From NCBI GenBank assembly GCA_965649265.1, contig CBFGKC010000001.1:13119-77118 (forward strand): a stretch of 64,000 bases of DNA, read 5' to 3'. This document shows positions 15,514 through 42,515 of this stretch, piece after piece. This DNA is from a candidate division WOR-3 bacterium (lineage in GTDB: Bacteria > Hydrothermota > Tepidihabitantia > B3-TA06). Each line of letters opens with the position of its first letter. Position 1 is the first letter of the stretch. The notes under the pieces were generated by a model. It did not search any database. It was not told the DNA's origin and saw only the letters and a list, made by a program, of their open reading frames with translations. Made by a program: the position numbers and the translations under genes.

Positions 15514-16725
15514 TCACCATCCTGTACTTCCTAGGCTGCCTTTGGATTTGCCTTCTACCCTACCGTTTTTGATAAGGTTTGCATATTCAGTTATCTCTGA
15601 TGCGTACAGCTCCCGGTTGAGGTGTCGAATTTCATCAAAGCCATCCCTTTCGTATCCAGCGAGTGTAACAATACTACCCAAAGGAAGAATGGAACTTAAC
15701 TCAAAGAAACCTCCAGGGTCTACATTAAGCTCTATTGCTCCACCAAGGTAAACGGCCATCTTAATGTTATATTTATATGCCCTATCTAAGGAATTCCACA
15801 TTTCCAACATCTGCGTGTTTATCTGGATCAGATACCAGGTGTCGGACTGGATCGCGGTGGTGCCGTAGACCGGTGAGACGGACACACCCGCAAGTGAACC
15901 CTTGAGGTAGCCGCCCTCGAGCGAGAGCGTGTATATGCCGCCGGTACTGCTTCCGTAGCCGAATATCTGGGAATTGACCGTCGAGACGCAGCAGTACCAC
16001 AGGAACTGGAAGCTGCGCATGCCGCGGGGGTCAACGCCCAGGAACAAGAGCGAGGAGCCTGATGATTCCCTCATTAACGCGGGTCGTGCAAAGAAGCCCG
16101 AATTGTACCAGCCCCAGCCCGAGGGCAGGGTGGCTTGCTGGCCGGAAACGCCGGGAAAGCTTGTCACCGTTGTGCCCTTGCCCTCGTCGCACGGGAAGTA
16201 AAAGAAAAGCCCGGGCGTGCCAGCCGCGCGCTCGCCGTTGAAGTGGTCGGAGTAGCCGCCTCCTGCGAGCCGCCACTGCAGCACCTCGACGAATTTTCGG
16301 TCCGTGGGCAGCACGAGCGTGCCGTTGCTGTCGGTGTTCAAGGAGCCCAGGTACGCGCCCGATATCTGGTCATAGACCTCCACATTGACGGCGGCAAGCC
16401 TTTTGCCCTTGATGATCGCGTAAAGCTCCTCGACCGCGGCCGCGGTCTCGAGCGCGGCCGCCGCCGCCTGCAGGGGATCGCGCACAATCTCGGTCCGGGC
16501 CTGCGCAATTGTCTTCCCCTGCCAGTCCTTCTGCTCGGGATAGTAAGTCTTCGTTCCGCATTTGCACGCCTCGGCCAGGGCCTTGGCCTTCACGAGGCTT
16601 TGGAGATTGTCGCTTTCGTAAAGGCTTGAAAGATCGCGCAGGCGCACAATCTGCTTGCCAGGGTAGTCGCGCTCGAAACCTATCGAGCCGACGCGAATTA
16701 CTTCAACCGTGCGGGTGTTGGCCAT
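15514..16725 (-). CDS. Tail-tip/receptor-binding protein with C-terminal LamG/concanavalin-like domain
   Basis: YFPCDEGKGTT...DTWY....GFDEIRHLNREL pattern typical of LamG; last gene of the tail block. Confidence 0.6.
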   Translation of the reverse strand: MANTRTVEVIRVGSIGFERDYPGKQIVRLRDLSSLYESDNLQSLVKAKALAEACKCGTKTYYPEQKDWQGKTIAQARTEIVRDPLQAAAAALETAAAVEELYAIIKGKRLAAVNVEVYDQISGAYLGSLNTDSNGTLVLPTDRKFVEVLQWRLAGGGYSDHFNGERAAGTPGLFFYFPCDEGKGTTVTSFPGVSGQQATLPSGWGWYNSGFFARPALMRESSGSSLLFLGVDPRGMRSFQFLWYCCVSTVNSQIFGYGSSTGGIYTLSLEGGYLKGSLAGVSVSPVYGTTAIQSDTWYLIQINTQMLEMWNSLDRAYKYNIKMAVYLGGAIELNVDPGGFFELSSILPLGSIVTLAGYERDGFDEIRHLNRELYASEITEYANLIKNGRVEGKSKGSLGSTGW

Positions 16726-16733
16726 CTCGGCTC

Positions 16734-18764: not shown

Positions 18765-19212
18765 CTGAGCCTCCTTTCCGGTTCCCCCAAAAAAGCTTCT
18801 CAAGCGAGAGGCTGATTGGAGGAATGACGGATTTGCATTTTTTTAATATAGAACATATGATAATCATCCATTCTACCGATCGATGATAAAGGGTCCTGGT
18901 CCCTCCATTGGTCACGCGTGAATCGAATCTCTGCGAAGAAGATCCCTCTTTTCCCCTAAGCAACCGCTTGATCATTTTTCCTCCTTAAAAAACAAATCTC
19001 GCTAGCTTGAAATACGGTCGAGTAGGGTTTCATATTCTCTTTGTTAATACTACGAGGATTTAAGCCCTTTTTTGTCACAAGACGCCCGGCCGGTAAATCG
19101 CGAGCGGAAATCGTTTGCAAAGTCTTAATTTTCAATACGTTATTCGATTTGTTGTTGTTCGGAGAAGAACGAAAATCAAATGCATGAATGCTGCATAGTT
19201 TGCGAATAACGC

Positions 19213-19279
19213 TTGACATGCGGTGGTTTTGAATTAAAATTTTAATGTATTTAATGATAGGATGTAGGATACTACATCC
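19213..19279 (+). promoter_or_regulatory. Promoter and palindromic operator of a small DNA-binding gene
   Basis: TTGACA(19213)-16-TAAAAT; GGATGTAG-GATA-CTACATCC at 19260-19279. Confidence 0.6.
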
Positions 19280-19295
19280 AGAAAGGAGAGCTCTT

Positions 19296-19484
19296 ATGGC
19301 TAGACCAAGATCTGGTGAACCCCGTAACAAGCTCCTCGCGATACGTGTAACCGATGAGTTATGGGAGACCCTTGACCGGACCTGGCACGCTATCTGTGCC
19401 AACGGTGAAAGGATCACTAAGGAGGAATTTCTCTCCCGCCTTTTGAAGGCTGGGCTCGAGAACCAGAAATCCTCCGGCGCATAA
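19296..19484 (+). CDS. Small ribbon-helix-helix-like DNA-binding protein (62 aa)
   Basis: MARP..RNKLLAIRVTDELWETL..ITKEEFLSRLL: beta-strand then two helices; SD AAAGGAG. Confidence 0.65.
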   Translation: MARPRSGEPRNKLLAIRVTDELWETLDRTWHAICANGERITKEEFLSRLLKAGLENQKSSGA

Positions 19485-19545
19485 TTTTCCATAAAGAGCA
19501 CGTACGGGAGCGTTTCTGAGACGGCAAGAGAATGAGCGGGCATTC

Positions 19546-20442
19546 TTAACCTACCTCTTTCAGCAAACTGTAAACGCCTGATACCGGACCGGTTACGATG
19601 AGTGACCGGCCCGGTGCGAATTTTATATCCGATACGGCCTGAGCAATCTGGTTGACTTGAACATCGCTAAGACCAGAAGGGACGACGAGGAGAAAATCGA
19701 CGAGTTCCCCCCAGGGCGCCCATGTAGTCCAGGGAGTCGATACCTCATCCCACTCCAGGGGCCAGTCGGGTGCAAGCTCCCAGAAAGGGATGATGGAGGG
19801 ATTCAGGCCGATTATTGCGATAACCCTGTCTTTAAAAGCCTTAACCGTCAGCGAAGCCGTAAAATCCCTCAGTTCATCCAGAAGACGCTCCCTGTAGTCT
19901 TCGTCCGACTCGCCTGCCGATCTGGAAAACTCAAGGGTCTGACCCCAGTTATCGAGCGCGTCGCCCGAGGCGTGCTGTATGAAGCGCGCGTCGTATACCT
20001 CGTTCAACCCGTCCGAAGTAAACTCCTGTGTCGAGTAGAAACCGACGTAGTCGGCAAAGACCTCTGCTCCCTCCTTCGGCGCAGTATAGAAAGTAACGTC
20101 GAAGTAACCTGTAGAGTACACTATCGTACCTGAACCACCCTCGGTGGAGCTGAGAGTGCCGTCGCCCTGGTCCTCGAGCGTCTCGGTCGTGTCACCCACG
20201 ACTAAGGCGTGTATCTCGAGTGTTCCCGGCTTTACACCCTTGTGAGAGAGATAGCCGGTGAAATGCTTCTGGAGTGAGGAGGTCCCCTCTCCTATCTGCT
20301 CGTCGGCAATGGTCTCTTCCTGACGTTTCCCTAGCTCGTCCCGCACGGTCGCAAGAAGCTTGCGCAGCGGTGAATCTTCCCTGAGGTCGCGGAAGGTCTT
20401 ACGACTCGTGAGAACGTCGAACTTGTAACTGAATCTTCCCAT
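19546..20442 (-). CDS. Baseplate wedge protein (gpI/gp48-like) with inserted beta-domain
   Basis: A.G..LD.WG....R..GESDEDYRERL motif; position after baseplate J. Confidence 0.7.
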   Translation of the reverse strand: MGRFSYKFDVLTSRKTFRDLREDSPLRKLLATVRDELGKRQEETIADEQIGEGTSSLQKHFTGYLSHKGVKPGTLEIHALVVGDTTETLEDQGDGTLSSTEGGSGTIVYSTGYFDVTFYTAPKEGAEVFADYVGFYSTQEFTSDGLNEVYDARFIQHASGDALDNWGQTLEFSRSAGESDEDYRERLLDELRDFTASLTVKAFKDRVIAIIGLNPSIIPFWELAPDWPLEWDEVSTPWTTWAPWGELVDFLLVVPSGLSDVQVNQIAQAVSDIKFAPGRSLIVTGPVSGVYSLLKEVG

Positions 20443-20463
20443 GTATACCTCCTTTGAGAAATT

Positions 20464-20994
20464 CTAGACGGAACTTACCTTTACCTCGGCACCCACGACG
20501 TTGTTTTCGTCCTGATCGAAGAAATCCTGTATCTCGGTAACCATATCTTCGTAGACCGGCCCGCCGTTATATGAGACGGTCACGTCGACGGTATTGGGCC
20601 CGCGCTCGCGCATGGCCACGGTGGCGTCGGTCACGAAGTCCTTGTAGTTTGCGAGGATCACTGACCGGTACCAGGCCTTCGTTCCCTTGCCCTTCTGGCG
20701 GTACATGGCAAGAACGTTCTGACGCGCGACTTCTGTATCCAGCGAATCGCTCCACGTAAGACCCCAAAGTTCGTAGTACCGGCGCAGGGTGGTGCGGTCG
20801 GAGTACTGCGCCCAGAGATCGAGGTAAAGTATCTTTAACCTGTCCCAGAGCATTGATATGGCCGCTGCGACGACCGTAAGGATCGAGCGAACGACCCCGC
20901 GGGTCCTCCAGTTCGTTAACTGCGGCGCTTCGGCCGCAAGCTGTGACTTCATGTCGTTAAATACTTCATTAGCGGTCTTAAAGTGCAAACTCAT
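20464..20994 (-). CDS. Short baseplate J/gp47-like protein
   Basis: FKT.NEV..DM, LTNW..GVVRSIL, GT..WY, RGPNTVDV motifs; only 176 aa. Confidence 0.75.
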   Translation of the reverse strand: MSLHFKTANEVFNDMKSQLAAEAPQLTNWRTRGVVRSILTVVAAAISMLWDRLKILYLDLWAQYSDRTTLRRYYELWGLTWSDSLDTEVARQNVLAMYRQKGKGTKAWYRSVILANYKDFVTDATVAMRERGPNTVDVTVSYNGGPVYEDMVTEIQDFFDQDENNVVGAEVKVSSV

Positions 20995-21006
20995 CGTGGC
21001 CTCCTT

Positions 21007-21122
21007 TTATGCTCGTCCCACACATTTATAATACTCCGTAACTCGCTTCGCTCGACGGAGTCTAATGTCATTGAAGACTTCGTTAGCCGTTTTGAAATGC
21101 AAGCTCATTGTGGCCTCCTTTG
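21007..21122 (-). pseudogene. Duplicate 5' fragment (SD plus 14 codons) of the baseplate J gene, forming a 33-aa mini-ORF
   Basis: MSLHFKTANEVFND identical to 20994-20953 at protein level, with 9 synonymous differences. Confidence 0.8.
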
Positions 21123-21132
21123 GATGTTGGAC

Positions 21133-21215
21133 CGGGGTCCCCGCGGCGTTGTGAAACAACGGCGTGGGGTATTTGTACGGGGTCCCCGCACGATTGCGAA
21201 GCAATCGGGTGGGGT
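21133..21215. repeat. Two tandem REP-like elements CGGGGTCCCCGC-hairpin-GTGGGGT
   Basis: Copies at 21133-21170 and 21178-21215; related copies at 38352-38389 and 49392-49430. Confidence 0.7.
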
Positions 21216-21221
21216 GTAATT

Positions 21222-21608
21222 TTACCTCTTTATGACCAGGGATATCTCCCTTGGCCTTACCCTTGAGAGCGGAAACACGCCGCATGTGAATCCTTCCTCC
21301 GTTAGATTGATGGTGTATCGACCTTCCACGAGCCGGTCCTCGCGTTCCAACGGTTCGCGAATCGCGTTGTAGAGATCTGAGATCACGATCCCGGCCATGG
21401 GCATATTCACGAACTCCGGCAGCCTTGAGCCGACCGTGAACGCGAGCGCCCAGTCGTAATACTGGCACCAGAGCTCGTTCAAAAGATCCTGCCTGAGCGA
21501 ATCCTCGCCTTCAAGAAGCGCGAAGTCGCCGTCCTCGATTTCTACGTCGGTGATTCTGCCGTCGGTATAATCTACCGTGAGTTTGACGTCACGGCCTAAA
21601 TCAGCCAT
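21222..21608 (-). CDS. Baseplate sheath initiator (gp25/gp46-like)
   Basis: DGDFALLEG.DSLRQDL...GSRL...LERED.RL motif. Confidence 0.75.
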   Translation of the reverse strand: MADLGRDVKLTVDYTDGRITDVEIEDGDFALLEGEDSLRQDLLNELWCQYYDWALAFTVGSRLPEFVNMPMAGIVISDLYNAIREPLEREDRLVEGRYTINLTEEGFTCGVFPLSRVRPREISLVIKR

Positions 21609-21699
21609 TCGAATCCTCCTTTCTCTGCGAAGAGAATGGGATGTTTGAGCGCTGTGCCAAGGAGGCGACGATTGTTGTCTTTGACTTCATTCAAAACTC

Positions 21700-22311
21700 C
21701 TAATCCGTGAACACGACCTTGGAGAGGAGCGCGGGCAGCGCGGGTGCCTGAAGAGGGGGAGGGCTTGAACCGTGCGTGTGCGTCGAAAGCCAGGAAACGA
21801 GCGAGTCGCCCCAGATTACGGGATGCGGTGCTGTTTTGCCGAGCTTGATGAGGGGCGACTTGACTTGCTTGAAGATGTCAATCTCCTCTGTGACGGTCTT
21901 TGCGACCTTTATTTCGACCGCGCCCGCGGTCTTCACGAATATGTCGTCGTTCGCCTTTACCTCGAGCCAGAAGTTATCACCCTTCTTTAAAATCATGCGC
22001 GTCCATTCCTGGCATGCGGTGATGGTCGGCCGGCCGTCAACCCATTCGATAAGGACCGTTGTGTCGACCTTCGGCACAAAAATCACTCCGATGTCATCGT
22101 CGGTGTTGAGAACGCGCATCGCGACGGGGACGTTTTGAAGAAGGCTCTCGGACTCCTTCTCGGGGTCAACGTCGCACCAGAAACCCGCAAGTCTTTCGGG
22201 CATTTTCCAGCCTGCAGGGGTAAGCTCCTGACAGCATTTGACCCTGCCCATTACCGCGTCATCCAGCCCCTTATCGGCAAGGTTTTGTATGATTTTCCTG
22301 AGTTCACTCAT
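21700..22311 (-). CDS. Baseplate central spike (gpV/gp45-like)
   Basis: OB-fold-like N-terminus with PKVD..V, beta-helix, C-terminal THTH metal-binding apex. Confidence 0.75.
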   Translation of the reverse strand: MSELRKIIQNLADKGLDDAVMGRVKCCQELTPAGWKMPERLAGFWCDVDPEKESESLLQNVPVAMRVLNTDDDIGVIFVPKVDTTVLIEWVDGRPTITACQEWTRMILKKGDNFWLEVKANDDIFVKTAGAVEIKVAKTVTEEIDIFKQVKSPLIKLGKTAPHPVIWGDSLVSWLSTHTHGSSPPPLQAPALPALLSKVVFTD

Positions 22312-23451
22312 CTACAACTCCTCTTTGTTTTTTACCATCGGCGGCTTTGACAGGTAAACCTGCATTCTAAAACCTTCCCCAGGTGAAAAAGACAATATAA
22401 CCCTTTTTGCATCGTAGAACCCGTTATTCTTCGACAGCTCCATATCCCCCCTCCATGCCATACCTATTTCGTGAGAGTGGGAGACGTCGGGATTCCCGAA
22501 AGTGACGAATGACCCGCCAAGCTCCTGCGAGTTGACATAAGCGAGATGTTCCTCCGCGCACTGCAGCGCATACTTCTCTGCCGAAGCCTTCGCGGAGGCC
22601 TCATCGGCTCCATCGAAGGAATAGGGCAATTTTATCTTGAGCGACCCGTCGCCCGTCTCGCCTTCGGCTGACGCTTTCTTTGATACGGAAAGGAACCTCT
22701 GCTTGGTGTCGAAAAGCTGGCAGGTGACTTCCTTGTACGGCTTCTCCCTCAAGTACTCGAGACCGACGGAAGAGATTACGTTGCCCTTGTCCCAGGGGTC
22801 GGATGAACCCTCCTTCCCGACGACAAAAACGTAGGGCTCCGGACTCTGCTCCAGATAATTTCTGTGATACGGCCACCGCGGACCGAAGTACACCTGGTCT
22901 TCCGTGCCCGGGATGAAGAAGTGAGTCCACTGGGTGCGTTCGGAAAGCATCGCCATCGCCTCCGCAACAGTCTTGTTGTGGAATTCGACGGAGTGCTGCT
23001 TTTGCCCAGGGCCGTTATCGGCCTCGGACGGAATCACGGCGCAGAGACCGACCCTGGACAGAAGATCACGCGCTATGTCGGTATAATAGAGGGGGGAGGA
23101 ATCGGTCCCGTACGTTTCTGTGATTCGCTGCTTCTTTGCCCGGTAGAACGGATCCTGAGCGGTAATGGTGAGGGGGTGGTGAGTTGTAACCGCGGATATT
23201 TCACCTGTGAACACTCTTTTTAAGCCGGGAACCTTATCGCCGTTCTTGTAACCGAGACTTATCTCAACCTTGTCGCCTTCCTTGAATAATTGAAGGGACT
23301 CCTTCTCCTTTGTAGGAATTTCGATTGTTGCCAGGTCTGAGGGAACGTCGGAGGCCAACTCAACCGCCAGACTGGATAACGTGATTACGTAGAGCGCTTC
23401 ACCACCGGCAGGGGTTATTTTAACCTCAAAATACGGATATAATGCCGACAT
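22312..23451 (-). CDS. Baseplate hub (gpD/gp44-like)
   Basis: GDKVEISLGY...VFTGEI...ITAQD and GSFVTFGNP motifs. Confidence 0.8.
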   Translation of the reverse strand: MSALYPYFEVKITPAGGEALYVITLSSLAVELASDVPSDLATIEIPTKEKESLQLFKEGDKVEISLGYKNGDKVPGLKRVFTGEISAVTTHHPLTITAQDPFYRAKKQRITETYGTDSSPLYYTDIARDLLSRVGLCAVIPSEADNGPGQKQHSVEFHNKTVAEAMAMLSERTQWTHFFIPGTEDQVYFGPRWPYHRNYLEQSPEPYVFVVGKEGSSDPWDKGNVISSVGLEYLREKPYKEVTCQLFDTKQRFLSVSKKASAEGETGDGSLKIKLPYSFDGADEASAKASAEKYALQCAEEHLAYVNSQELGGSFVTFGNPDVSHSHEIGMAWRGDMELSKNNGFYDAKRVILSFSPGEGFRMQVYLSKPPMVKNKEEL

Positions 23452-23454
23452 GTC

Positions 23455-23898
23455 TCAACTCCTGTAAAAAAAACTTCTCCATTTAGTTGCCTTGCTCAAA
23501 CTCGCGGCGCTTGCCCGGGCGAGGTATTTAATCTCACCACCGGAAACAGGCACATCATCCGGCTCCCACCCGTTGTGTTCGTAAACGTCAAAAAAAATAT
23601 AAGGATCGTTATACCGATCTATAGAGAGCGCAATCACCGGGTCAAGAGAAGGCTCATTCGCATATAAAAGTACGAAGTCCGGGACCTTTGTTTTTACTTC
23701 CCTCGTTTCAACGTAGGGTATGAAAACCTGCATTCCGGCATCGCAGCGCTCCGGGTCGTCACCAAAAAGCTCCAGATTCGCATGGTATATTATCCACCAC
23801 AGCGACGCATCGCCGTAGTAAAGCTCCGCTAAAAGCCACACATCCTCGCCTTGCTTCAGGGAGTGAACGAATCCTTTTTCTATTGATTGATCCATCAT
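23455..23898 (-). CDS. LysM/tail protein X-like baseplate protein
   Basis: GEDVWLLAELYYGDASLWWIIYHAN motif. Confidence 0.75.
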   Translation of the reverse strand: MMDQSIEKGFVHSLKQGEDVWLLAELYYGDASLWWIIYHANLELFGDDPERCDAGMQVFIPYVETREVKTKVPDFVLLYANEPSLDPVIALSIDRYNDPYIFFDVYEHNGWEPDDVPVSGGEIKYLARASAASLSKATKWRSFFYRS

Positions 23899-24560
23899 CC
23901 ACCACCCCTCTTGGCTTTAAGGATTTTATACTCCTCGAGGGTCATAAAAAGCTTAGTTTCACCCTCGACACTGACTCCGCTCATGCTGACTTGATACCGG
24001 TGGTTGGCCACCGGATTTATGGAAATGCTCTGGATTACCACATTGCGGATTTCAAGTTCGCGTAAAAGCGAAGGCTTTTGTTCGAACATCGGTAGCTGCC
24101 CGAAGAACTTCTGCCTGATTTGCGGCACTTCTTTTACGGTTGAACCCTGGATTATCTCGATCGTCGAATCGCCGTCCTGTTTGCGTATGAGATTCACGAG
24201 TTCCTTTATGATTCGATTGGCCCGTATTACCCCGCCCTCGTTGTACTTGGACTGCACGTCATAAAGAGGTACCCGGAAGTCGCCGGCCTCGAAAGAGATC
24301 GTGAACGTGTAGCAGTTGAATCCTGTGATCATCACAGGGTTGTTATCCGTGCCGCTCGTCGCCTTCGTACTCTCACTGTTGATGCTGCCCGAGATGCTTA
24401 TGTTACAGGGATAAGGAATGGGGACTTCATCTTGACCTCTCTTGACGACAAGGAACTCCATGTAGGTGTACATGGTTCCCGAGCGGTGGGTAGTGAAGAT
24501 GAGGTCCTCGGCTACCTGTCCCATCTGCTTCAAGGGATCAAGGATATCGTCTATTATCAT
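23895..24560 (-). CDS. Tail tube initiator (gpU-like)
   Basis: Position between the tape-measure slot and the LysM gene; beta-rich fold pattern. Confidence 0.55.
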   Translation of the reverse strand: MIIDDILDPLKQMGQVAEDLIFTTHRSGTMYTYMEFLVVKRGQDEVPIPYPCNISISGSINSESTKATSGTDNNPVMITGFNCYTFTISFEAGDFRVPLYDVQSKYNEGGVIRANRIIKELVNLIRKQDGDSTIEIIQGSTVKEVPQIRQKFFGQLPMFEQKPSLLRELEIRNVVIQSISINPVANHRYQVSMSGVSVEGETKLFMTLEEYKILKAKRGGG

Positions 24561-24581
24561 AAAATTCCTCCTTTAAAAAAT

Positions 24582-26996: not shown

Positions 26997-27193
26997 TATC
27001 CACCTCCTAACAATTTGGCGATAGCGTGCGCGAGGCGCTTTGCTTCGCGCTCTTCGAGCCAGAGCGCCTCGCCGTATCTTAGCCAGAACTCCCGCTCGTC
27101 CTCGGGGGAGTTTCCAAAGTAGTGTCTCACCATAGCCTGGGCCGCCAGGACGACATTAGAATCTAGTTGCCGCCGGCGGGCCTGGGAAAATTT
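26996..27193 (-). CDS. -1 frameshift extension (gpGT-type) of the tail assembly chaperone
   Basis: Slippery A AAT TTT at 27193-27187; -1 frame is open (..MVRHYFG..EALWLEER..) to a TAA overlapping the next ATG. Confidence 0.75.
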   Translation of the reverse strand, partial: KFSQARRRQLDSNVVLAAQAMVRHYFGNSPEDEREFWLRYGEALWLEEREAKRLAHAIAKLLGGG

Positions 27194-31054: not shown

Positions 31055-31055
31055 C

Positions 31056-31502: not shown

Positions 31503-31713
31503 TGGAGCCTCCCTTGACAGTCTTTCGAGTGTTCCTTGGTTTTGATTCGAGCCTCTCAATCAAGCCCGCCTTTTCCAGATCGCGCGATACGTCGAGGCCG
31601 ATGATCGAGACCTCGCCTGCATCGTACCAGCGCCCTCCCGATTTCACCTGTCTCAGAAATCGTACTCTCACATTTCCTGGATCAGGGGCGGGCCTGGAAG
31701 CTTTTCTGGGCAT
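31483..31713 (-). CDS. Small head-associated protein
   Basis: VRFLRQVK.GG.WY.AGE....A..L...G.IE motif, common after capsid genes. Confidence 0.65.
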   Translation of the reverse strand: MPRKASRPAPDPGNVRVRFLRQVKSGGRWYDAGEVSIIGLDVSRDLEKAGLIERLESKPRNTRKTVKGGSSAVSNR

Positions 31714-33980: not shown

Positions 33981-34187
33981 AAATTGACCTCCTTTCCATT
34001 TTCACCATGGCCGTATTCTCTCCGGATTTCTGACGCGTACAATAGAATCCTGACCTGCTTTTATTTGACTTTTTTTTAACATCTTTACCTCGATTCCCTC
34101 TCCGAAGCCCTTGACTTCCCTGAAAATCGAGTTTAAAATGTTGCAGGAAATATGATTTCCTCGGCAACCGTGGAGAATGGAGGTTTC

Positions 34188-35843
34188 ATGTTAGTTTTGA
34201 TAATCCAGATTTTTTTGAACCCTGTGGTTGATTCCATAATTGATTCGACTCAAGTGATGCAAGCCCGGATTAAGGTCTGGAAATCCCTGAAGGTAATGGG
34301 TATCGGGTTCGACGTTGCCACGGGCAGCCTGGCGGAACACACCTATCCTTTATCGCCCTCGCACGATTTCGTGGCTATCGGAATAGGCCTAACACCAAAG
34401 TACGGCGGCATTGGAGCATGGCTGAAGTTATCCCAAGACGTTTTTTCGGGAGGCGAAAGTAATGCCTTGCCGTCATTGCGGCTGACTTACACGCCTTATT
34501 ACAGATGGAAAACCCTAGGTGACACGACTTTTAAGCATCTGAGATTCGATATCTTCGCTGAGGGTGGTTTCCACGAATTCTATCTGGAGAGCGGCTACCT
34601 GCGCTTTGGCGCCAGCGGGTCATGGAATTGGAACAAGTATGTTGCTCCGCTCGATTTAGAGTTAGGATGGGGGATAGTTTCGGGACGCTGGTATTCGGCC
34701 GTGTCAGGGCTTTATGCAAGGATCGGCACTTCGTTATATGAACAGGAAATACCCGTTACAAACCCCGAATCCCTGGTCGTGAAAAGTGTGCTCACGACGA
34801 CCGCATTTCCTAATGCATGGCTGGGATACAGGGCGTTTACATATTCATTGATTTTACCTTCAGACGGTTTCGCATCGAGAGAGTTCGACTTGCTGATGCT
34901 GGGAATCGGTTTAACCCCTCCCCTCGGAATAGGCTTATGGCTCAAAGTCATACCCTATTACGAGTCGGACTATAGTGTGAGTGGTGATTATGCCGCTCTC
35001 AGGCTCACTTACTCTCCGTACTTCTCGTGGGACAAGCACCGTTATGGCCTCTATCGCAAGCTAAGACTCGATTGTTTTCTCGAATCTTCTTTTTCCACGC
35101 TCCACTCCGAGCCGTTATTGAGAGGAGGGGTGTCAGGATCGTTCTCGCTTTTTCCCAGGGCCGTGCCTTTTGATGCCGAGCTGGGATGGGCATATTCAGC
35201 ATATGATTACGGGCCCGCGACCGTCAGGTACTCAGGACCGTACTTCCTGATCTCGGCGAGCGCGTTAGGCATGGATGTCGTCATTGGAGAGGGCCGCCCG
35301 GGGCATGCAGTAAGCTTTTTGAATTCACTTAAGGATTCCAGGACCTGGGTATCCTACGAGATACTTGCAGGGAGCGGGGGGATATGTTACCGGCACATCC
35401 CCGTACTTTCCGAAGAGGAACTTGTTACCACATACGAAGTAACCTTTTTGCGTCTGGGCGCAGGATTCTCCCCTCCTTTTGGATTAGGTTTAAGCGCAAG
35501 GCTTTGGATAGGAACCGGCTCCTGGGAGGGGCCTGCGGCATCGTTGAGGTTGAGCTATTCCCCTTTTGCTTCGTATAAGGACGCAGGAAACATAACCTTC
35601 CGACGCTTACGTGTTGATCTTTTTGTCGAGCCCGGCATCGGGTACTGGAGAGGCGGTGAGCAGTGCTTCAGGACCGGAGTAGAAGGGTCATTCTCCTGGC
35701 TCCCATCCATGCCTTGCCTGCACCTGGAGGCCGGTTGGATCTCGTGGGAACAATGGGATTATCAGCGCAGGGGGCCGTATCTCGAGCTATCCGTGGGTCT
35801 TCTCGGCGGTGAGTTCATTGTCGGTAAGAACGGCAAGAACTGA
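34188..35843 (+). CDS. Putative outer-membrane protein with three tandem beta-barrel-like repeats
   Basis: Three ~175-aa repeats: G.G.(T/S)P..G.G...(K/R), LRL(T/S)Y(T/S)P, LR.D.F.E, R.G..GS, E.GW, G.Y. Confidence 0.7.
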   Translation: MLVLIIQIFLNPVVDSIIDSTQVMQARIKVWKSLKVMGIGFDVATGSLAEHTYPLSPSHDFVAIGIGLTPKYGGIGAWLKLSQDVFSGGESNALPSLRLTYTPYYRWKTLGDTTFKHLRFDIFAEGGFHEFYLESGYLRFGASGSWNWNKYVAPLDLELGWGIVSGRWYSAVSGLYARIGTSLYEQEIPVTNPESLVVKSVLTTTAFPNAWLGYRAFTYSLILPSDGFASREFDLLMLGIGLTPPLGIGLWLKVIPYYESDYSVSGDYAALRLTYSPYFSWDKHRYGLYRKLRLDCFLESSFSTLHSEPLLRGGVSGSFSLFPRAVPFDAELGWAYSAYDYGPATVRYSGPYFLISASALGMDVVIGEGRPGHAVSFLNSLKDSRTWVSYEILAGSGGICYRHIPVLSEEELVTTYEVTFLRLGAGFSPPFGLGLSARLWIGTGSWEGPAASLRLSYSPFASYKDAGNITFRRLRVDLFVEPGIGYWRGGEQCFRTGVEGSFSWLPSMPCLHLEAGWISWEQWDYQRRGPYLELSVGLLGGEFIVGKNGKN

Positions 35844-35881: not shown

Positions 35882-36430
35882 ATGAGATCCAGATTGACGC
35901 GAATCTTGTTATTGATTTGTTTTGTCACGGGAACGTGCATCTTTCCGGGATGCGCCAAAAAGGATTCCGACGGCGCGAAGAAGTTCATCGGGGACTACTG
36001 GTCTGCGGTTTTCAAGGGCGACGCGCGCAAGGCATATTCCATGCTTACAAGCGAGAGTAAGAAAACCATCTCCTTCGAAAAGTATGCCTACAACATTTCT
36101 TACGGAACCAAACCCACCCCGTTGACGGATAGTTTCTTTAGTGTCTATGCCCCGGCCTGCAACATGAGCCCGGGACCTGTCATGATAGAGGGTGACACGG
36201 CAAAAGTGGAATTGCTTTTGACCATTCCAGACCTGCCTTATATGAACCGCACCCGTCTCCTTGCTGAGGCCGATTCGCTCTTCGCAGGTAAGGATACGCT
36301 GCTGCGCAACGAATGGCTCATTCGCCAACGCACGATTGCCGTCCGCGAAAAACACTACAGGCCCCTTATCCTGCATCTTTCCCTGAGGCTTGCATGGAAA
36401 TGGGGTTCCTGGCATCTTATTTATGATTGA
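35882..36430 (+). CDS. Lipoprotein, NTF2-like (paralog 1)
   Basis: Lipobox-like FPGC; YW.AV.KGD...AY.ML..ES, TIPD, C-terminal W.L. Confidence 0.7.
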   Translation: MRSRLTRILLLICFVTGTCIFPGCAKKDSDGAKKFIGDYWSAVFKGDARKAYSMLTSESKKTISFEKYAYNISYGTKPTPLTDSFFSVYAPACNMSPGPVMIEGDTAKVELLLTIPDLPYMNRTRLLAEADSLFAGKDTLLRNEWLIRQRTIAVREKHYRPLILHLSLRLAWKWGSWHLIYD

Positions 36431-36441
36431 GAGGTAAAGAG

Positions 36442-36981
36442 ATGATTCGAAGGTTAGCAGCGTTTTTAGGGCCATGGCTCGTTTTATTACTCGGCGCCTG
36501 CCCGGGAAAAGACGAATCTCCTCTCGTGAAGGACACGGCCGCCGGCTACTGGAATCACTTGTTTAAGGGCGAGATACGAGCTGCGTTCAATATGCTCGAT
36601 AAAGGGTCGAGGCAGTTTATGAACTACTCTCAGTTCGCGAACAAGGTTGGATTCGGCTCCAGCGGGGTTACCGAGGTCAAAGAGTACTGGAAGGCATACT
36701 TCCCACTCACCGATGTGGATGTAAAATCAGTAACGGTTCGCAAGGATGCGGCTTCGGTCTCTCTTATCCTTACGATTCCTGACCCCAAGTGGTTTCCTGA
36801 CGAGGCACAGATGGAGGCGGAAAGGCTTGGCCTCGTGGATCAGGAATATGCACTGTTCATGATCAGGGCCCAGACCGATGCCCTCAAACAAGGCAAGATT
36901 CCCACGGTCAGGATTTCAGAAGTGACGAATCTAGTCAAGGAGGAGGGCTCATGGAAGGTTGTTTTCAAGGACGAAGGATGA
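36442..36981 (+). CDS. Lipoprotein, NTF2-like (paralog 2)
   Basis: LGAC lipobox; YW..L.KGE...AF.ML..GS, TIPD, LVKEEGSWKV. Confidence 0.7.
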   Translation: MIRRLAAFLGPWLVLLLGACPGKDESPLVKDTAAGYWNHLFKGEIRAAFNMLDKGSRQFMNYSQFANKVGFGSSGVTEVKEYWKAYFPLTDVDVKSVTVRKDAASVSLILTIPDPKWFPDEAQMEAERLGLVDQEYALFMIRAQTDALKQGKIPTVRISEVTNLVKEEGSWKVVFKDEG

Positions 36982-37027
36982 ATGAAACGGGGTGACTGGA
37001 CAAGGTGTGAGAAAAAAAGGAGGACGA

Positions 37028-37582
37028 ATGCGCGGAGTTGTCTTTAAAACAGTCTTTATTTTTTGCCTGTGTGCATTATTCGTTCCGGCCTGCACGAACG
37101 AGGAGGATGAAGTCCGCGGCGCCGCCTCGCGTTTTTGGAAGTCGGTACTCGAGGGCAACTTCGACTCGGCCTATAAAATGCTTTCCCGCCAGTCACGGAT
37201 ACTCACGCCGCGTTCGGAATTCGAGAGTCAATTCAGCTTCGGTACTTACAAATCGTGGAACTCGAGGGCTCTAGAGAAAGCATGGTTAGCGGCGTGCAAG
37301 TTCACGATTGAGGACGTTGAGCAGCGCAGCGATCAGGGAAGGGTTGCGATAACCTTCCGCGTCCCCGACATGGAAGCGCTCTCAAGACGCATTTCCGCCG
37401 AGGCCGAGCGTGAGGGCATGATTCGCAAATTCGCGGGCGACGAGCAGAAACTAGAGAGCTGGTTCGCCAAACGCATGACTGAGGAGCTTAAAAATAACCG
37501 CTTCACGAGAATGAGGATAGATAATGAGACGTATCTCGTGCGTGAGGCGGGCGAGTGGAAAATATTTTACCAACCGGAGTGA
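37028..37582 (+). CDS. Lipoprotein, NTF2-like (paralog 3)
   Basis: VPAC lipobox; FW..V.EGN...AY.ML..QS, RVPD, LVREAGEWKI. Confidence 0.7.
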   Translation: MRGVVFKTVFIFCLCALFVPACTNEEDEVRGAASRFWKSVLEGNFDSAYKMLSRQSRILTPRSEFESQFSFGTYKSWNSRALEKAWLAACKFTIEDVEQRSDQGRVAITFRVPDMEALSRRISAEAEREGMIRKFAGDEQKLESWFAKRMTEELKNNRFTRMRIDNETYLVREAGEWKIFYQPE

Positions 37583-37586
37583 TGAT

Positions 37587-38123
37587 TTGAAAGGAAAGAA
37601 ATACCTGCAGTGGACGGCCGGACTGGTGATGCCCGGCCTGATATTAGCCCTGGCAAGCTGCGCCAAGGCCGACTCGGTCGCCAACTATGAGCCGGTGGAC
37701 AGGTCGAATCTCGTGCAGATGGGCACGTGGGGAACGAGCGGAAAACTCATGTTCCGTGTCATGAAGGTCGAGGAGGCAAAGGCGTTTAAGAAGGGGGAGG
37801 AGGGCCAGGAGAAAGCCCCGCAGGGCATGAGATTCGTGATAATCACACTGGACGTGATGCCTTACGACCAGGGCAAAGGAACTGTGGATGTGCCGCGCTC
37901 GGTGAGTCTGGTTGACGCTTCCGGCCTTGCCTACAGGCCCAACTCCGAACGATTCACGAGACTCAACGGCGGGTACGCCGAGATCAAGATCGACGCCGGC
38001 AAGTTTGCCGAGCGCATCGTGGCCTTCCTTGTTCCCAGGGATTTCAAACCCCTGGCTCTGAGATGCGCCGGCGCGGACGACGCCAAACCATGCCTTCTTG
38101 CGCTGAGGGTGGAAGAAAAATAG
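37587..38123 (+). CDS. Lipoprotein, DUF4352-like
   Basis: LASC lipobox; AP.G.RFVII.L.V...LVDASG..Y...VAF.VP; start approximate. Confidence 0.65.
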   Translation: MKGKKYLQWTAGLVMPGLILALASCAKADSVANYEPVDRSNLVQMGTWGTSGKLMFRVMKVEEAKAFKKGEEGQEKAPQGMRFVIITLDVMPYDQGKGTVDVPRSVSLVDASGLAYRPNSERFTRLNGGYAEIKIDAGKFAERIVAFLVPRDFKPLALRCAGADDAKPCLLALRVEEK

Positions 38124-39092: not shown

Positions 39093-39218
39093 TTGTCCAC
39101 AAACGGGTGTGGATAATCGTATAAATCACCCAAAAATGTGCTATTTGCCAATATGGCTCTTGACAAATCACCCTTTTGGGTTATAATCCATTCGATGACT
39201 GAATCCGTTTGGGTGATT
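39093..39218. promoter_or_regulatory. Divergent switch region: strong promoter, three AATCACCC sites, DnaA-box pair
   Basis: TTGACA(39160)-16-TATAAT; AATCACCC at 39124 and 39166, inverted TTTGGGTGATT at 39208; TTGTCCACA at 39093 and TGTGGATAA at 39108. Confidence 0.7.
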
Positions 39219-39253
39219 ATAAGCATGGAAACTCTAGTTGTCAAGGGGTGAAC

Positions 39254-39724
39254 ATGAATAAACGCAGGACAAGTGAAGTGCAGACGTGGGGGGATGTGCA
39301 AAGGGCGCTCGTGGAGCTTGGACGTTTTGAGGCAAGGCTCGAGCGCAAGAACGAGAACGCGGGACGCAAAATCCAGTCCGTAGAAGAGAGGCTGGGGGAA
39401 GAAAGCGCCGTGCTCCTGGCGGAGATAGACCGTCTTCGTCAGGAGCTGGAGCGCTTCTTTAAAAGAAACTCCCGCGGCGCAAGAACAAAAACTCTTCCCG
39501 AGGGCAGCCTTGGGATAAGAGTCCGTTCTCATTTACTGATTCCGAAGCCCGGCCTGACCTCAAGAAAACTCATGGAAAGGGGCCTGGGCGACTGCCTTCG
39601 GCTCAAGGAAAGCATTGATCGTCAGGCACTCTCAAGACTCGATGACGACACGCTCTCGAGTGTTGGCGCAAGAAGGGTGGTAAGGGAGGTCTTTTATGCC
39701 AGAGCGAGGAGGAAAGGAAGATGA
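39254..39724 (+). CDS. gam: Mu Gam-like host-nuclease inhibitor
   Basis: V.TW.DV..AL.EL, KTL.EG.LG.R, LR.KESID.QAL, L..VG.......F motifs. Confidence 0.8.
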   Translation: MNKRRTSEVQTWGDVQRALVELGRFEARLERKNENAGRKIQSVEERLGEESAVLLAEIDRLRQELERFFKRNSRGARTKTLPEGSLGIRVRSHLLIPKPGLTSRKLMERGLGDCLRLKESIDRQALSRLDDDTLSSVGARRVVREVFYARARRKGR

Positions 39725-40308
39725 AGGAACGCAGCCTCTCAGAGGTGAAAGCGGCCCTCGCCGCAGAGCGAAGGGAGCTTGACAAGGCGATAGCAAACCA
39801 GAGCTTCTTTTGTTCGAGCAAGAAGCGAGTCGTCTCGCCGGCCCAGTGTCATGACTGCTTCGCGGTGATTCCGTATTTCGAAAAACTCTCTCGCTGGAAG
39901 GAAGACCGAATGCTTTGCATCAAGGAACACGGCCAGGCTCTGCGCAAGCCCGCAGCATCCGTGGAGGAGGGGGTGACAGGGACCGGATCGACGCAAAGGT
40001 CCGGGGGAAGGAGGGAGCAAAGGCACGATCCTGGTGGATTTTCGATTGAGGAGTATGTCTCAAGAAGTATTCTCGAGTATTATCTGGAGCTCGATTCCCT
40101 CGCCGAGAAATTCGAAACCTGGTGGATGGCTCTTGCCCCCGAGGCACGCTCGAGGATTCACAAAAGCACCGATCTTCTTGAGGCTCTTATGTGGTTTGGT
40201 GAACGACTCCGGGAGTTCCAGTGTGCAGTGGTGAGAGTCGCACGCTGCCCGGATAACGAAGATAAAAACAACAACACGAAGGAGGAATCATGTGGGGTGA
40301 AGAACTGA
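39721..40308 (+). CDS. Hypothetical protein with Cys cluster
   Basis: Translationally coupled to gam; FC...QCHDC...C. Confidence 0.55.
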   Translation: MKERSLSEVKAALAAERRELDKAIANQSFFCSSKKRVVSPAQCHDCFAVIPYFEKLSRWKEDRMLCIKEHGQALRKPAASVEEGVTGTGSTQRSGGRREQRHDPGGFSIEEYVSRSILEYYLELDSLAEKFETWWMALAPEARSRIHKSTDLLEALMWFGERLREFQCAVVRVARCPDNEDKNNNTKEESCGVKN

Positions 40309-40595
40309 CCCTTAATCTCTTCGGGGCGACCATCCTGGGCTCCGTTATCGTCGCCGCCATCGTCGAGAAACTGAAAACGTGGCTCAAGACCGAAGGATGG
40401 CTGACCACGCTCATGGCCCTTGTGGTGGGTACGGCGCTTGGTGGGCTCCTTTATCTCGTGGAACTCGGCGCCGTAAAGCTCGGTATGCCCGGTCAGGTTA
40501 TCCCGCTTGCCGTCGCGCTTCTTGACGGTTTCTTTTCCGGCGGGGTTGCCGCAGGGTTGTGGAAGGCCGCCCGAAACCTGGGAAGAAAGGGATGA
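40290..40595 (+). CDS. Putative holin (3 TM)
   Basis: Three hydrophobic segments, IVEKLK motif, basic C-terminus. Confidence 0.65.
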   Translation: MWGEELTLNLFGATILGSVIVAAIVEKLKTWLKTEGWLTTLMALVVGTALGGLLYLVELGAVKLGMPGQVIPLAVALLDGFFSGGVAAGLWKAARNLGRKG

Positions 40596-40945
40596 GAAAG
40601 GGGGTGAATAAGGGCCGCGGACGCTTCGTACGGTTATCCGTGATCCTGTCCGCGGCCCTGGTGGCCGCCGCTTCGGCGCTTGCCGCATTCGTATCGGGTT
40701 ACGCTCTGGCATTCTCGCGCGTCTCCGGAGTGTGGGAAGAAACCACGCTTCTCAAGGCTAGAGCATCGGAACTCGAGGCTCAGATTCTGCGCTTGAAGAA
40801 CTACGCCGTTTTGATTGACGCCATCGCCGCTAATGGCCGCGCTTCCGAAGAGCTCTTTGAACTGGGCGAAAGGGTCGTCGTTGCCGGCAGGGACAGCTTT
40901 AATTGCGACGGCCAAAACCCTGACAAGGGTATCAGGCGCCAATGA
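40592..40945 (+). CDS. Single-TM coiled-coil protein (spanin-like or peptidase N-terminal remnant)
   Basis: N-terminal TM followed by heptad repeats; follows the holin. Confidence 0.45.
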   Translation: MRKGVNKGRGRFVRLSVILSAALVAAASALAAFVSGYALAFSRVSGVWEETTLLKARASELEAQILRLKNYAVLIDAIAANGRASEELFELGERVVVAGRDSFNCDGQNPDKGIRRQ

Positions 40946-41274: not shown

Positions 41275-41354
41275 ACCCTTGCGCGATATGGACAGGCGTC
41301 AGAACCGAAAGAAAGTTTTTAACGCTGGGTTAAAGGAAAAACCCGGAGGTGCAA

Positions 41355-42515
41355 ATGAAAAAGTTGAAACCTGTTGAAAAGGAACTGGCCGTGTCGGGCG
41401 CTGCCTCGACCTGGTTCGGTAACATTCTGACAAGTATGCCGGTCTCCTCCACCTCGTTTCTAGAAAGACACGAAGGAAGGGACATCTGGCAGGTTTTTGA
41501 GGAGATGATGGAGGATTCCCATATCCAGAGCGCCTTTGCCTCGAGACGGGCGGGTGTTTCGGGCAGGCGATGGGATGTGACGCCCTTCGACGAATCGGCG
41601 CGCTCGAGGAAGGTGGCCGATTTCGTGCGCAAGACGCTCGCAAGGATTCCGAATTTCGAGCACGCCCTCGGGCATCTGCTCAAAGCGGTGCCCTACGGAC
41701 ACTCGGTTCTCGAGATCATGTGGCGCATAGACCCCGACGCAGTCAGGGTTGACGCATTAAGGACTCGCAGGCCGGAGCGCTTCACGCTTCTGGAAAACTC
41801 CGGCCTCAAGCTGGTAGACGATTCACAGGGCGGCGAACGCTCGCTCCCCGCGCGCAAGTTCGTCTGCCACAGGCACGAGCCGCAGGACGATATCCCATTC
41901 GCGAAGCCGCTCCTCTTGTCGCTTTACTGGCCGTGGTACTTCAAAAAGAACGGGCAGGCCTTCTGGATGGTTCTCGCCGAGAAGTTCGGCATCCCGTCCG
42001 TGATCGGCCGCTACCCCTCTCATTTTACCGATGCGGACGTGAAGAACCTCGCGAGCGCTCTCATAAACCTGCAGCAGGACTCGGTCGCCGCGGTGCCACA
42101 GGAGACGCAGGTGGAAGTCGAAAGCATCCAGGTGGGCGAGAAGGGTTCCTTCTTCAGGGAGCTTTTGGATTTCATGAACGCGGAGGTATCCAAGACGGTA
42201 CTCGGAGGAACCTTGACCCAGGAGGTGGGCAACGTCGGCTCTTACGCAGCTGCGAAAACCCACCAGGAGGTTCGGCAGGAGATAATCGCGGCGGACGCCA
42301 GGCTCCTTCAGACGACCGTCAACTCGACGCTCGTGCGCTGGCTCGTGGATTTCAACTACGGGCCGGACGTCGAGGCCCCCTCGTTCGTCGTCGACTACCT
42401 CCCCCCTCGCGGCACGCCCGAGTTCGCGCAAGTGCTGAAGACGCTTTCAGATATGGGATACAAGGTTCCCGAGCGCTTCATCGCCGAAACCTTCGGCCTG
42501 CCCGAGAGCGAATAA
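41355..42515 (+). CDS. Portal protein, Mu gp29 (DUF935)-like
   Basis: EM.EDSHI.S....R, AVPYG.SV.EI.W, W....EKFG.P..IGRYP, ELLDFMN.EVSK.VLGGTLT, GSYAAAK.H.EVR. Confidence 0.92.
   Translation: MKKLKPVEKELAVSGAASTWFGNILTSMPVSSTSFLERHEGRDIWQVFEEMMEDSHIQSAFASRRAGVSGRRWDVTPFDESARSRKVADFVRKTLARIPNFEHALGHLLKAVPYGHSVLEIMWRIDPDAVRVDALRTRRPERFTLLENSGLKLVDDSQGGERSLPARKFVCHRHEPQDDIPFAKPLLLSLYWPWYFKKNGQAFWMVLAEKFGIPSVIGRYPSHFTDADVKNLASALINLQQDSVAAVPQETQVEVESIQVGEKGSFFRELLDFMNAEVSKTVLGGTLTQEVGNVGSYAAAKTHQEVRQEIIAADARLLQTTVNSTLVRWLVDFNYGPDVEAPSFVVDYLPPRGTPEFAQVLKTLSDMGYKVPERFIAETFGLPESE

Follow-up and report, generated by a model that had tools for sequence, protein, structure and literature searches.

The window analyzed here is a 64,000-nucleotide stretch of contig C1 (371 kb) in the genome of a candidate division WOR-3 bacterium (G000:C1:13119-77118). 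Between positions 14731 and 42515 (locus A; coordinates are those of the window unless a contig is named) it holds about 30 intact genes for head, neck, contractile tail, and lysis and for a repressor, flanked by housekeeping genes. Taken together with genes found elsewhere in the genome, this element probably specifies a multi-locus, family-wide, SOS-type-regulated DNA-packaging particle that is similar to a gene transfer agent (GTA) or to PBSX and derives from a domesticated transposable myovirus. That the element is domesticated, i.e., inherited vertically under selection, is very likely, and it is moderately likely that the particle packages DNA. It is tentatively suggested that it represents a new GTA lineage, which would be without precedent in its descent from a Mu-like phage, in its contractile tail, and in its occurrence in WOR-3, and which was fixed in the family ancestor, is controlled by an SOS-type switch, and packages DNA at random through a small terminase subunit (TerS) devoid of a helix-turn-helix (HTH) domain, in convergence with RcGTA. 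Domestication in the ancestor of the family is indicated by deletions common to four genera, by a universal single copy that has co-diverged with its hosts, and by a constraint that is strongest on the head, portal, adaptor, and terminase genes. The original prediction for this DNA had proposed either a host-maintained, capsid-bearing injection device, possibly with protein cargo, or a GTA using an unlinked terminase, and had named a whole-genome search for the missing genes, synteny between hutH and glyQS, a host-congruent phylogeny, and dN/dS (the ratio of non-synonymous to synonymous substitution rates) below 1 as means to decide.

The family belongs to the Ca. Stahlbacteria (WOR-3) and is represented by 11 species genomes, i.e., G000, which holds the window (2.74 Mb, 27 contigs, 96% complete), and G001-G010; the wider set comprised 272 WOR-3 genomes. 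A portal of the reduced type, named for what the element lacks relative to complete phages of the same lineage, was found in one copy in each of the 11 family genomes (73-78% identity), with an additional copy at 58% identity on contig C3 of G000. Across the 272 genomes 14 had a portal match, and the matches outside the family (3 of 261) were remote (23-33% identity). The capsid gene is intact in 11/11 family genomes (75-80% identity), and a sheath match was obtained in 11 of 41 sampled relatives (G000 included), which are all 11 members of the family and none of the 30 genomes outside. On the scale of housekeeping proteins, identities across the family are 80-89% for GlyQ and 59-65% for GlyS. 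Internal stops suspected in the sheath genes of G002, G004, and G005 proved on retranslation to be terminal stops only; the proteins of G005 (602 aa) and G002 (617 aa) are full-length and that of G004 is cut by a contig end without a stop. The same reduced content, lipoprotein cassette included, was mapped gene by gene in G001, G002, and G003 and by gene pairs in G006. In G001, the other species of genus g1, the element sits at the same chromosomal place as in the window, between a rearranged hutH neighborhood on one side and the Fic, PD40, glyS, and glyQ genes on the other, as the proposed synteny would have it. In genus g3, whose flanks were also compared, the 9.4 kb downstream of the G003 portal are rich in multi-copy genes and short repeats and map to contig ends elsewhere.

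The second Mu-type portal of G000 belongs to a complete-looking transposable prophage at C3:~76.4-121.7 kb (loci L007, L008, L010), which is 65-77% identical to the window in patches of DNA and 27-80% identical in protein. On its leftward arm, early genes and the gene for a 435-aa protein are followed by those for an rve-type transposase of 540 aa, the holin, an HTH_17 protein, and the portal; then come gpF, genes for a 221-aa and an endolysin-like protein, small genes, and genes for a 193-aa protein, the large terminase subunit (TerL), and a methyltransferase. The rightward arm carries the repressor and a protease-scaffold gene, then D and E, then the genes of neck and tail, and last the fibers. 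The gene order of C3 recurs in three contigs from IMG/VR (36-42 kb; behind L023-L025); the full phage G273 is an IMG/VR record. The extra genes of these full relatives comprise the transposase (phrog_310, 1.1e-20), TerL (phrog_2, 5.8e-25), gpF (phrog_220, 2.2e-48), the endolysin-like protein, and the protease (phrog_976, 5.6e-35). The original prediction had seen an inverted head-tail block and an HTH gene where a terminase would be expected. The orientation is real, but it is no rearrangement; both the divergent layout and the HTH gene before the portal are native to the phage lineage, because C3 and the IMG/VR contigs share this order. A single inversion of ~34000-42520 was rejected as the cause of the layout, as C3 and the three IMG/VR contigs show the same two divergent arms. 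The HTH_17 gene has the same place before the portal in C3 and G273, and TerL never precedes the portal in the full phages of this lineage. No cultured phage is close to the C3 prophage (~76400-121740); likewise the sheath, compared with 50,697 phage records, matched four at 24-28% identity and no close cultured phage, and a sequence search of the PDB with the C3 TerL returned marginal matches only (E >= 0.016).

When ~40 window open reading frames (ORFs) were scanned against the Pfam and PHROG family profiles, no transposase, integrase, MuB, terminase, gpF, protease, or endolysin family was matched, in line with the absences noted in the original prediction; the PF02914 profile had no match either, but its control likewise matched nowhere. 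Relative to C3 and G273 the reduced element has lost the transposase with five neighboring early genes, gpF, and the C-terminal 350 aa of a 435-481-aa early protein, whose Cys4 N-domain is kept and joined to a different conserved C-terminus. The portal is shortened by its last ~30-70 residues, with an ORF of 384-406 aa in 9/9 complete reduced copies vs. 428-460 aa in 3/3 full phages. The 256-aa scaffold aligns with the G273 protease-scaffold protein (469 aa) over residues 168-226 and 376-467 of the latter and is without the conserved N-terminal domain of ~140-165 aa; in the C3 homologue phrog_976 covers residues 16-359, nearly the whole protein. Two small head-completion genes (homologues of C3 97089-97529 and 98011-98619) have no counterpart in the window copy (BLASTP, 1e-4). 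The lipoprotein cassette and a 195-aa gene, on the other hand, are gained relative to the full phages. The C3-type transposase occurs in one of the 11 family genomes, only inside the C3 phage, gpF in one of 11, and a full-phage-type TerL in two of 11, G001 among them; none of these markers was found in the remaining 9/11. In G000 the whole-genome search places transposase and gpF only in the separate C3 prophage. This prophage was dismissed as the missing remainder of the window element, which by the original prediction would have counted as a refutation, because it has its own complete structural set, for which identities to that of the window of 27-80% and of only 44-60% were obtained.

The same search recovered a cognate terminase, as foreseen for a GTA with an unlinked terminase. 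Locus B (G000:C1:263112-265640), 190 kb off, contains an 87-aa gene, a small membrane protein gene, a TerS-like gene, and an orphan TerL (C1:263946-265640, 564 aa, 64% identity with the C3 TerL), and what lies before this TerL corresponds by homology to the small genes ahead of the full-phage TerL. Reduced-type TerL is present in 10/11 family genomes (9/10 others; orthologues at 69-77% identity), with intact Walker A, Walker B, and nuclease motifs and dN/dS of 0.05-0.12. The TerS-like protein encoded directly upstream is ~105-116 aa long from a conserved Met and matches only the C-terminal part of the 187-193-aa protein at the same position in full phages (hhalign 92%, E 7e-7; in a second run 95%, E 3.6e-8, residues 141-188); of the full-phage protein five homologues were found, none of them with a name. 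In the AlphaFold model of the full-phage protein (mean pLDDT, the predicted local distance difference test score, 76) an N-terminal three-helix bundle at 16-63 is followed by long helices, with block-mean pLDDT of ~81-93 across residues 11-70, and the model of the reduced protein (mean pLDDT 78.5) has long helices from its start. Alignments and models show that the N-terminal HTH domain of the full-phage homologue is gone from the reduced TerS-like protein. An active-looking TerL next to a TerS-like protein without HTH points to non-specific DNA packaging, a hallmark of GTAs and PBSX-like particles.

An endolysin homologue (34-44% identity with the full-phage enzyme) opens locus B in G002, G003, G005, G006, and G010 (genera g2 and g3). 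A candidate endolysin for genus g1 within a 524-aa ORF (C1:296925-298499) gave only a 27-28% partial match and was not accepted. Locus C (C1:349633-350256) encodes a 207-aa membrane-anchored protein homologous to that of the full-phage gene after gpF; it is present in 10/11 genomes and is located 2-3 kb downstream of the portal in G006 and G008. The genes of the element in G000 are accordingly spread across at least three loci, 190 kb and 295 kb apart, and a single headful would presumably not accommodate all of them.

Selection was assessed at two distances. Between the window and G001, 41 reciprocal-best ORF pairs remained after removal of shadow ORFs, 30 in the element and 11 in the flanking host DNA. 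The non-synonymous divergence (pN 0.079-0.410) was lower than the synonymous divergence (pS 0.562-0.892) in 30/30 element pairs; the 11 host pairs had pN of 0.034-0.242 and pS of 0.544-0.773, and synonymous sites were saturated in both classes. No partner was found in G001 for four window genes, namely those of the tape measure, the 119-aa protein, the third lipoprotein, and the 563-aa protein. Between the closer genomes G003 and G006 the element genes have dS of 0.05-0.73, with dN/dS of 0.019 for the capsid, 0.14 for the portal, 0.18 for the sheath, 0.19 for the tube, 0.28 for the scaffold, 0.14 for the repressor, 0.20-0.27 for the early genes, of which the two at 39209..40308 have 0.23-0.27, and 0.21-0.37 for the lipoproteins, and dN = 0 for the adaptor. 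Host genes at the glyQS locus of the same two genomes have dS of 0.05-0.53 and dN/dS of 0.05-0.31, and the G007-G008 pair gives the same picture. Values of dN/dS close to 1 or higher belong to antisense shadow ORFs, e.g., 8377-9144. The ratios are far below 1, as anticipated for a maintained element, and within the element constraint is tightest on the head, portal, adaptor, and TerL genes (dN/dS 0-0.14).

Quick trees of portal, capsid, and TerL all set the reduced sequences apart from those of the full phages as a separate clade (Shimodaira-Hasegawa-like approximate likelihood ratio test support 99-100). More careful trees were made for the host from GlyQ and GlyS (1012 columns) and for the element from capsid, portal, and TerL (1218 columns), keeping rows with much missing data (G004, 28% filled; G009, 25%; G005, 47%). 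The two trees have 7/8 internal splits in common. The sole conflict is the order within G007/G008/G009, where support in the element tree is 71/74. None of 20,000 label permutations reached seven common splits, the maximum being six, which occurred twice. The phylogeny of the element is in this respect as host-congruent as the original prediction had anticipated.

The intergenic region between the repressor and the early arm carries two facing consensus promoters, each identical in 12/12 positions to TTGACA/TATAAT. One (39160-39187, +) is directed at the early arm and the other (39244-39216, -) at the repressor gene. The plus-strand promoter and the CACCC...GGGT motifs that flank it are invariant in 4/4 genomes from three genera despite saturated neutral sites. 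The Ala-Gly site, the GDSM serine, and the lysine of the repressor are likewise kept in 4/4 reduced elements aligned.

These data lead to a probable account of how the element arose and how it may work. The ancestor was probably a temperate transposable myovirus whose portal and adaptor were of the Mu type, whose head was of the lambda E/D type, and whose sheath was a DUF2586 protein. It was captured by the common ancestor of one Stahlbacteria family with loss of the transposase and its early neighbors, gpF, the protease domain, and two head-completion genes, and every descendant examined has kept the remaining genes under purifying selection. Self-cleavage of the S24 repressor, stimulated by RecA, would open the consensus promoter of the early arm. 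Scaffold, capsid, and portal, together with the decoration protein, may then form proheads, and these may be loaded with any available chromosomal DNA by the unlinked TerL under the guidance of a TerS that has no sequence-reading HTH. Adaptor and neck proteins would couple the heads to contractile tails, and the particles would be released by the holin, the spanin-like protein, and, where present, the endolysin. Such a particle could not propagate its own genes; it would be GTA-like if the DNA is delivered and recombined and PBSX-like if it serves mainly to kill or mark competitors.

Several observations weigh against this reading. The expression, assembly, random packaging, and delivery of the particle and its benefit to the host are predicted from its genes. 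No RNA data set is listed for window 27500-33980, and three DNA runs of a single study contain only 0.08-0.16 of its sequence words. The loss of the protease domain, gpF, and the two head-completion genes might prevent the formation of DNA-tight or tail-competent heads. The TerL of G000 contains an in-frame insertion of ~75 aa in the linker between ATPase and nuclease (C1:264833-265119) that could impair the enzyme; it holds a ~60-bp dispersed repeat, of which the genome has over 20 copies, and of seven reduced-type TerL sequences aligned only that of G000 has the insertion. Neither TerL nor the 207-aa gene was found in G004 (93% complete, 80 contigs), and no endolysin was found for genus g1, where locus B of G000 and G001 is without it. 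The identity of the TerS comes from position, size, and sub-threshold Pfam matches (Terminase_5, E 0.046; HTH, E 0.007), and the top four Foldseek matches are small terminases at non-significant E-values of 0.16-0.52, no match being at or below 0.001. All 11 family genomes are metagenome-assembled, several of them are fragmented, and completeness is 81-96%. Only within genus g1 is the chromosomal site shared; the element and glyQS are on separate contigs in G002 and G003.

The tail genes have a history of their own, which also counts against a purely vertical account. Full-phage sheaths nest among those of reduced elements, and the tape measures of G000 and G001 have no BLASTP match to each other; from the nesting and the unrelated tape measures it follows that the tail module recombines with live phages. 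Sheath identity to G273 (locus L131) is 91% for G007 (L016) and 84% for G003 (L014), and only 54% between G000 and G001 of the same genus. The 91% identity of the G007 sheath is best read as a recent exchange of tail genes between a domesticated element and a live phage. The intactness of the tail genes could therefore partly come from such recombination.

How the element compares with established classes of phage-derived DNA depends on what is present and what is missing. An ordinary Mu-like prophage would carry a DDE transposase with its partner, gpF, a protease, and TerL, all of which are absent from 14731-42515. R-type tailocins and extracellular contractile injection systems are set apart by the retention of capsid, decoration protein, scaffold, portal, and TerL. 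Phage satellites (P4, phage-inducible chromosomal islands (PICIs), or capsid-forming PICIs) are set apart by the full head and tail set and by the lack of an integrase or replication gene in the element. With a GTA it shares a chromosomal caudovirus-derived gene set, the absence of self-propagation genes, vertical inheritance (tail genes excepted), and purifying selection.

Among other explanations, a killer particle or an injection device with a capsid, in which DNA plays no part and the head is structural or filled with protein cargo, is unlikely, even though the complete contractile tail and baseplate are retained, the conserved lipoprotein cassette could serve self-protection, and a Fic-domain gene follows the portal in genus g1 (2/2 genomes). 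A TerL with intact motifs and low dN/dS, together with a TerS-like partner, is hard to explain without packaging. There is no Fic gene beside the portal in G002 and G003 (0/2), and no effector-loading genes of known injection systems turned up in the family scans of the window. The protein cargo considered in the original prediction thus finds no support.

It is also quite unlikely that the element is a helper-dependent defective prophage or satellite, complemented and perhaps mobilised by phages of the C3 or IMG/VR type that supply transposase, gpF, and protease. Such a helper is at hand in G000 itself (C3:~76.4-121.7 kb), a full-phage-type TerL occurs also in G001, and sheath genes have been exchanged with full phages. 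Full-phage genes are, however, rare in the family (transposase 1/11, gpF 1/11, TerL 2/11), whereas the reduced element is in 11/11, and its own TerL clade, a tree that follows the host, and dS equal to that of host genes argue against horizontal spread.

A role restricted to lysogenic conversion or defense, with the repressor giving immunity, the lipoproteins giving exclusion, and the structural genes being refreshed by phage recombination, is very improbable. It would account for the conservation of the repressor and the lipoprotein cassette and for the exchange of tail genes with live phages, but the head, portal, adaptor, and TerL genes are without such exchange, with clean, host-congruent clades and dN/dS of 0-0.14. 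Finally, neutral decay of an ordinary cryptic prophage, to which the many missing phage genes, the REP-like (repetitive extragenic palindromic) repeats and small duplication in the element, and the insertion in the G000 TerL could be ascribed, is hardly credible given the same deletions in four genera with saturated synonymous sites and yet ~30 open reading frames, pN below pS in 30/30 pairs, dN/dS of 0-0.37 in close pairs, and an element in 11/11 genomes.

The individual features of locus A are collected in Table 1. The late genes form a continuous minus-strand series from 33980 to 14731, and GC content is similar in element (0.44-0.58) and flanks (0.46-0.60). Family matches bear out what the original prediction had read as capsid, decoration protein, gp36 adaptor, portal, sheath, tube, baseplate, fibers, repressor, holin, and double HTH protein. 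The frameshifted chaperone stands as well; the end of its ORF (27163-27462) overlaps a canonical -1 slippery heptamer, A_AAT_TTT, and the -1 frame is open up to the tape-measure gene. All four lipoproteins have lipoboxes. Three other details have to be revised. The supposed gam gene (39721-40308) has no family match and encodes a Cys4-motif protein, the supposed outer membrane protein (34152-35843) has no family match and is absent from the G001, G002, and G003 elements, and the left edge, set at 15514, has to be moved to 14731 or lower.

The secreted protein at that edge has no match in Pfam or PHROG; it is 50% identical to the terminal right-arm gene product of G273 (229 aa) and to that of the same-position 211-aa gene of G001. 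Both fiber proteins are 49-63% identical to the products of the C3 and IMG/VR fiber genes, and for the 195-aa gene at 18956..19543 homologues were seen in G001 (60%) and G002 (52%); C3 and G273 have none. The baseplate module consists of a wedge (298 aa), a J-like (176 aa), a 128-aa, a spike-like (203 aa), a hub (379 aa), and a LysM-like (147 aa) protein, and its orthologues are uninterrupted in G001, G002, and G003. In the window an intergenic insertion at 20951..21224, where the matching gap of G001 has 62 bp, consists of a 57-bp direct duplication in which the ribosome-binding site and the first codons of baseplate gene 20464-20994 are repeated, followed by two REP-like GGGGTCCCCGC-type palindromic repeats that recur on several contigs. 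The 221-aa protein and the tape measure gave no family match in the Pfam and PHROG scans. The lipoprotein cassette is present in the elements of G001, G002, G003, and G006 and missing from C3 and G273; as to its function, Pfam scans of 11 members gave scattered sub-threshold NTF2-like matches, each in 1/11. Orthologues of the holin and of the 128-aa coiled-coil protein are found in every element mapped. An ORF at 39044-39532 was rejected as a gene, as it looks non-coding and the conserved gene there is 39209-39724 on the opposite strand.

Table 1. Features of locus A (window positions; matches with E-values where available).
Feature	Position	Strand	Family match or remark
Secreted protein, 218 aa	14731..15387	-	Closes the tail-fiber arm; marks the actual left limit of the element
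Tail-fiber gene, 403 aa	15514-16725	-	
Tail-fiber gene, 689 aa	16734-18803	-	phrog_9370 (tail fiber), 7.5e-5
195-aa gene between fiber and baseplate genes	18956..19543	-	Confined to reduced elements
Baseplate module, six genes	19546..23898	-	phrog_1160, phrog_6, phrog_4930 (8.2e-19), phrog_7145 (2.5e-10); weak PF04865, PF04717
221-aa protein and tape-measure protein (804 aa)	23895..26996	-	Assigned from position and size
Tail assembly chaperone (99 aa) with -1 frameshift extension	26997..27462	-	PF20941, phrog_20303
Tail tube, 155 aa	27523-27990	-	phrog_4579, 8.9e-12
Contractile sheath, 604 aa, DUF2586 type	28002-29816	-	PF10758, 2.1e-32; phrog_907, 1e-23
Neck/head-completion genes (119 aa, 299 aa, adaptor, 76-aa ORF)	29806..31713	-	
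Mu gp36-type adaptor, 167 aa	31056-31559	-	PF07030, 1.5e-16; phrog_195
Lambda E-like major capsid protein, 339 aa	31723-32742	-	PF03864, 2e-69
D-like decoration protein, 125 aa	32752-33129	-	PF02924, 4.8e-20
Scaffold-only protein, 256 aa	33210..33980	-	Protease domain lost
563-aa protein with three internal repeats	34152..35843	+	G000-specific; outside the core
Lipoprotein cassette: three ~180-aa paralogues and one DUF4352-like	35882..38123	+	Lipoboxes FPGC, LGAC, VPAC, LASC
CI/LexA-like repressor, HTH_3 and S24 peptidase	38394-39047	-	PF00717, 1.9e-23; phrog_4, 9.6e-40
Early gene, 171 aa	39209-39724	+	Homologue of full-phage 150-153-aa protein
Early gene, 195-aa Cys4-motif protein	39721-40308	+	Homologous to N-terminus of full-phage 435-481-aa early protein
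Holin, 101 aa	40290-40595	+	phrog_1299, 2.4e-5
Membrane-anchored coiled-coil protein, 128 aa	within 40290..40945	+	Putatively spanin-like
Double HTH_17 protein, 110 aa	40942-41274	+	PF12728, 2.8e-21, two stretches; directly upstream of portal
Mu-type portal, 388 aa	41349-42515	+	PF06074, 1.7e-101; right edge of locus A

Some neighboring features of the window are recorded here in their own right. Right after the portal (42539-45079) come two genes, one for a Fic-domain protein of 500 aa (PF02661, 4.1e-17) and one for a PD40 beta-propeller protein, which in G001 are found at the same place with 84% and 80% identity and are not at this place in G002 and G003; GC falls here to 0.46. A radical SAM/SPASM-domain gene (13546-14592) between hutH and the left end of the element is not at that position in G001. 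Two tandem paralogue families, three genes of ~230 aa at 1676-3836 and three of ~350-400 aa at 4833-8621, both have members inserted in the lipoprotein cassette of G003 and flanking the G001 element. The region 50000-58000, with large ORFs at 53835-56198 and 56053-57681, has a low GC content (0.37-0.45 vs. ~0.52 elsewhere) and may be another island.

Among the closest known systems are the full phages (C3 and the IMG/VR contigs behind L023-L025), which have the same two divergent arms and, at 25-82% identity, homologues of the structural, holin, HTH_17, and portal genes. They differ in having an rve-type transposase, the 435-481-aa early protein, gpF, an endolysin, the protease domain, a TerL within the locus, and a TerS-like protein of full length, and in lacking the lipoprotein cassette; the DNA methyltransferase is an extra seen in C3 only. 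Mu and BcepMu-like transposable phages share the portal (PF06074) and adaptor (PF07030) families and, with the full relatives, gpF and DDE-type transposition. The present lineage is distinguished from them by a lambda E-like capsid, a D-like decoration protein, and the location of portal, gpF, and TerL on the early-direction arm, divergent from the head-tail arm.

The PBSX-like defective prophages of Bacillus are chromosomal, species-wide, and non-propagating, have a head and a contractile tail, are induced by DNA damage via a repressor, and package host DNA. The Stahlbacteria element is predicted to be similar in being a chromosomal non-propagating head and contractile-tail element with a repressor. 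There is no detectable sequence relation between the two, and whereas PBSX has its terminase within the cluster and comes from a non-transposable phage, the terminase of the element lies outside its cluster.

To our knowledge only a handful of independent domestications of phages into DNA-carrying particles are known. Literature searches on Stahlbacteria/WOR-3 genomics and on Mu-like, contractile-tail, or viriform GTAs, covering main texts, gave no report of such an element, and the WOR-3 genomics paper makes no mention of phage or GTA. If the interpretation as a GTA is correct, a second route to the GTA state would show that this solution is convergent and predictable, the common end state being loss of self-propagation genes, distribution over several loci, and a small terminase without a DNA-binding domain. 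This route would start from a transposable myovirus in a candidate phylum with almost no cultured members, and it would provide a genomic signature for finding more such elements in metagenomes as well as a possible mechanism of gene exchange in WOR-3.

RcGTA has a non-contractile tail and is controlled by host regulators. The element would differ from it in its independent origin from a transposable ancestor with a Mu-type portal and adaptor, in its contractile tail and its WOR-3 host, in that the unlinked part is TerL and not accessory genes, and in that a phage-type S24 repressor is kept; it differs also in being known so far as a set of genes. BaGTA and BhGTA have non-contractile tails or none, according to a portion of a published account (PMC9662315). 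With the RcGTA-type GTAs (Rhodogtaviriformidae, Alphaproteobacteria), as described in parts of three sources (PMC9662315, PMC6854486, PMC5026251), the element shares a phage-derived head-tail set without replication or integration genes, a distribution over several loci, vertical inheritance, and purifying selection. The likeness appears to extend to a TerS or TerS-like protein that lacks the DNA-binding domain at its N-terminus and to lysis genes that are partly unlinked. As stated in part of the study by Sherlock et al. (PMC6854486), the TerS of RcGTA starts with a coiled coil and has no DNA-binding domain, which has been proposed as a mark of GTA-type terminases.

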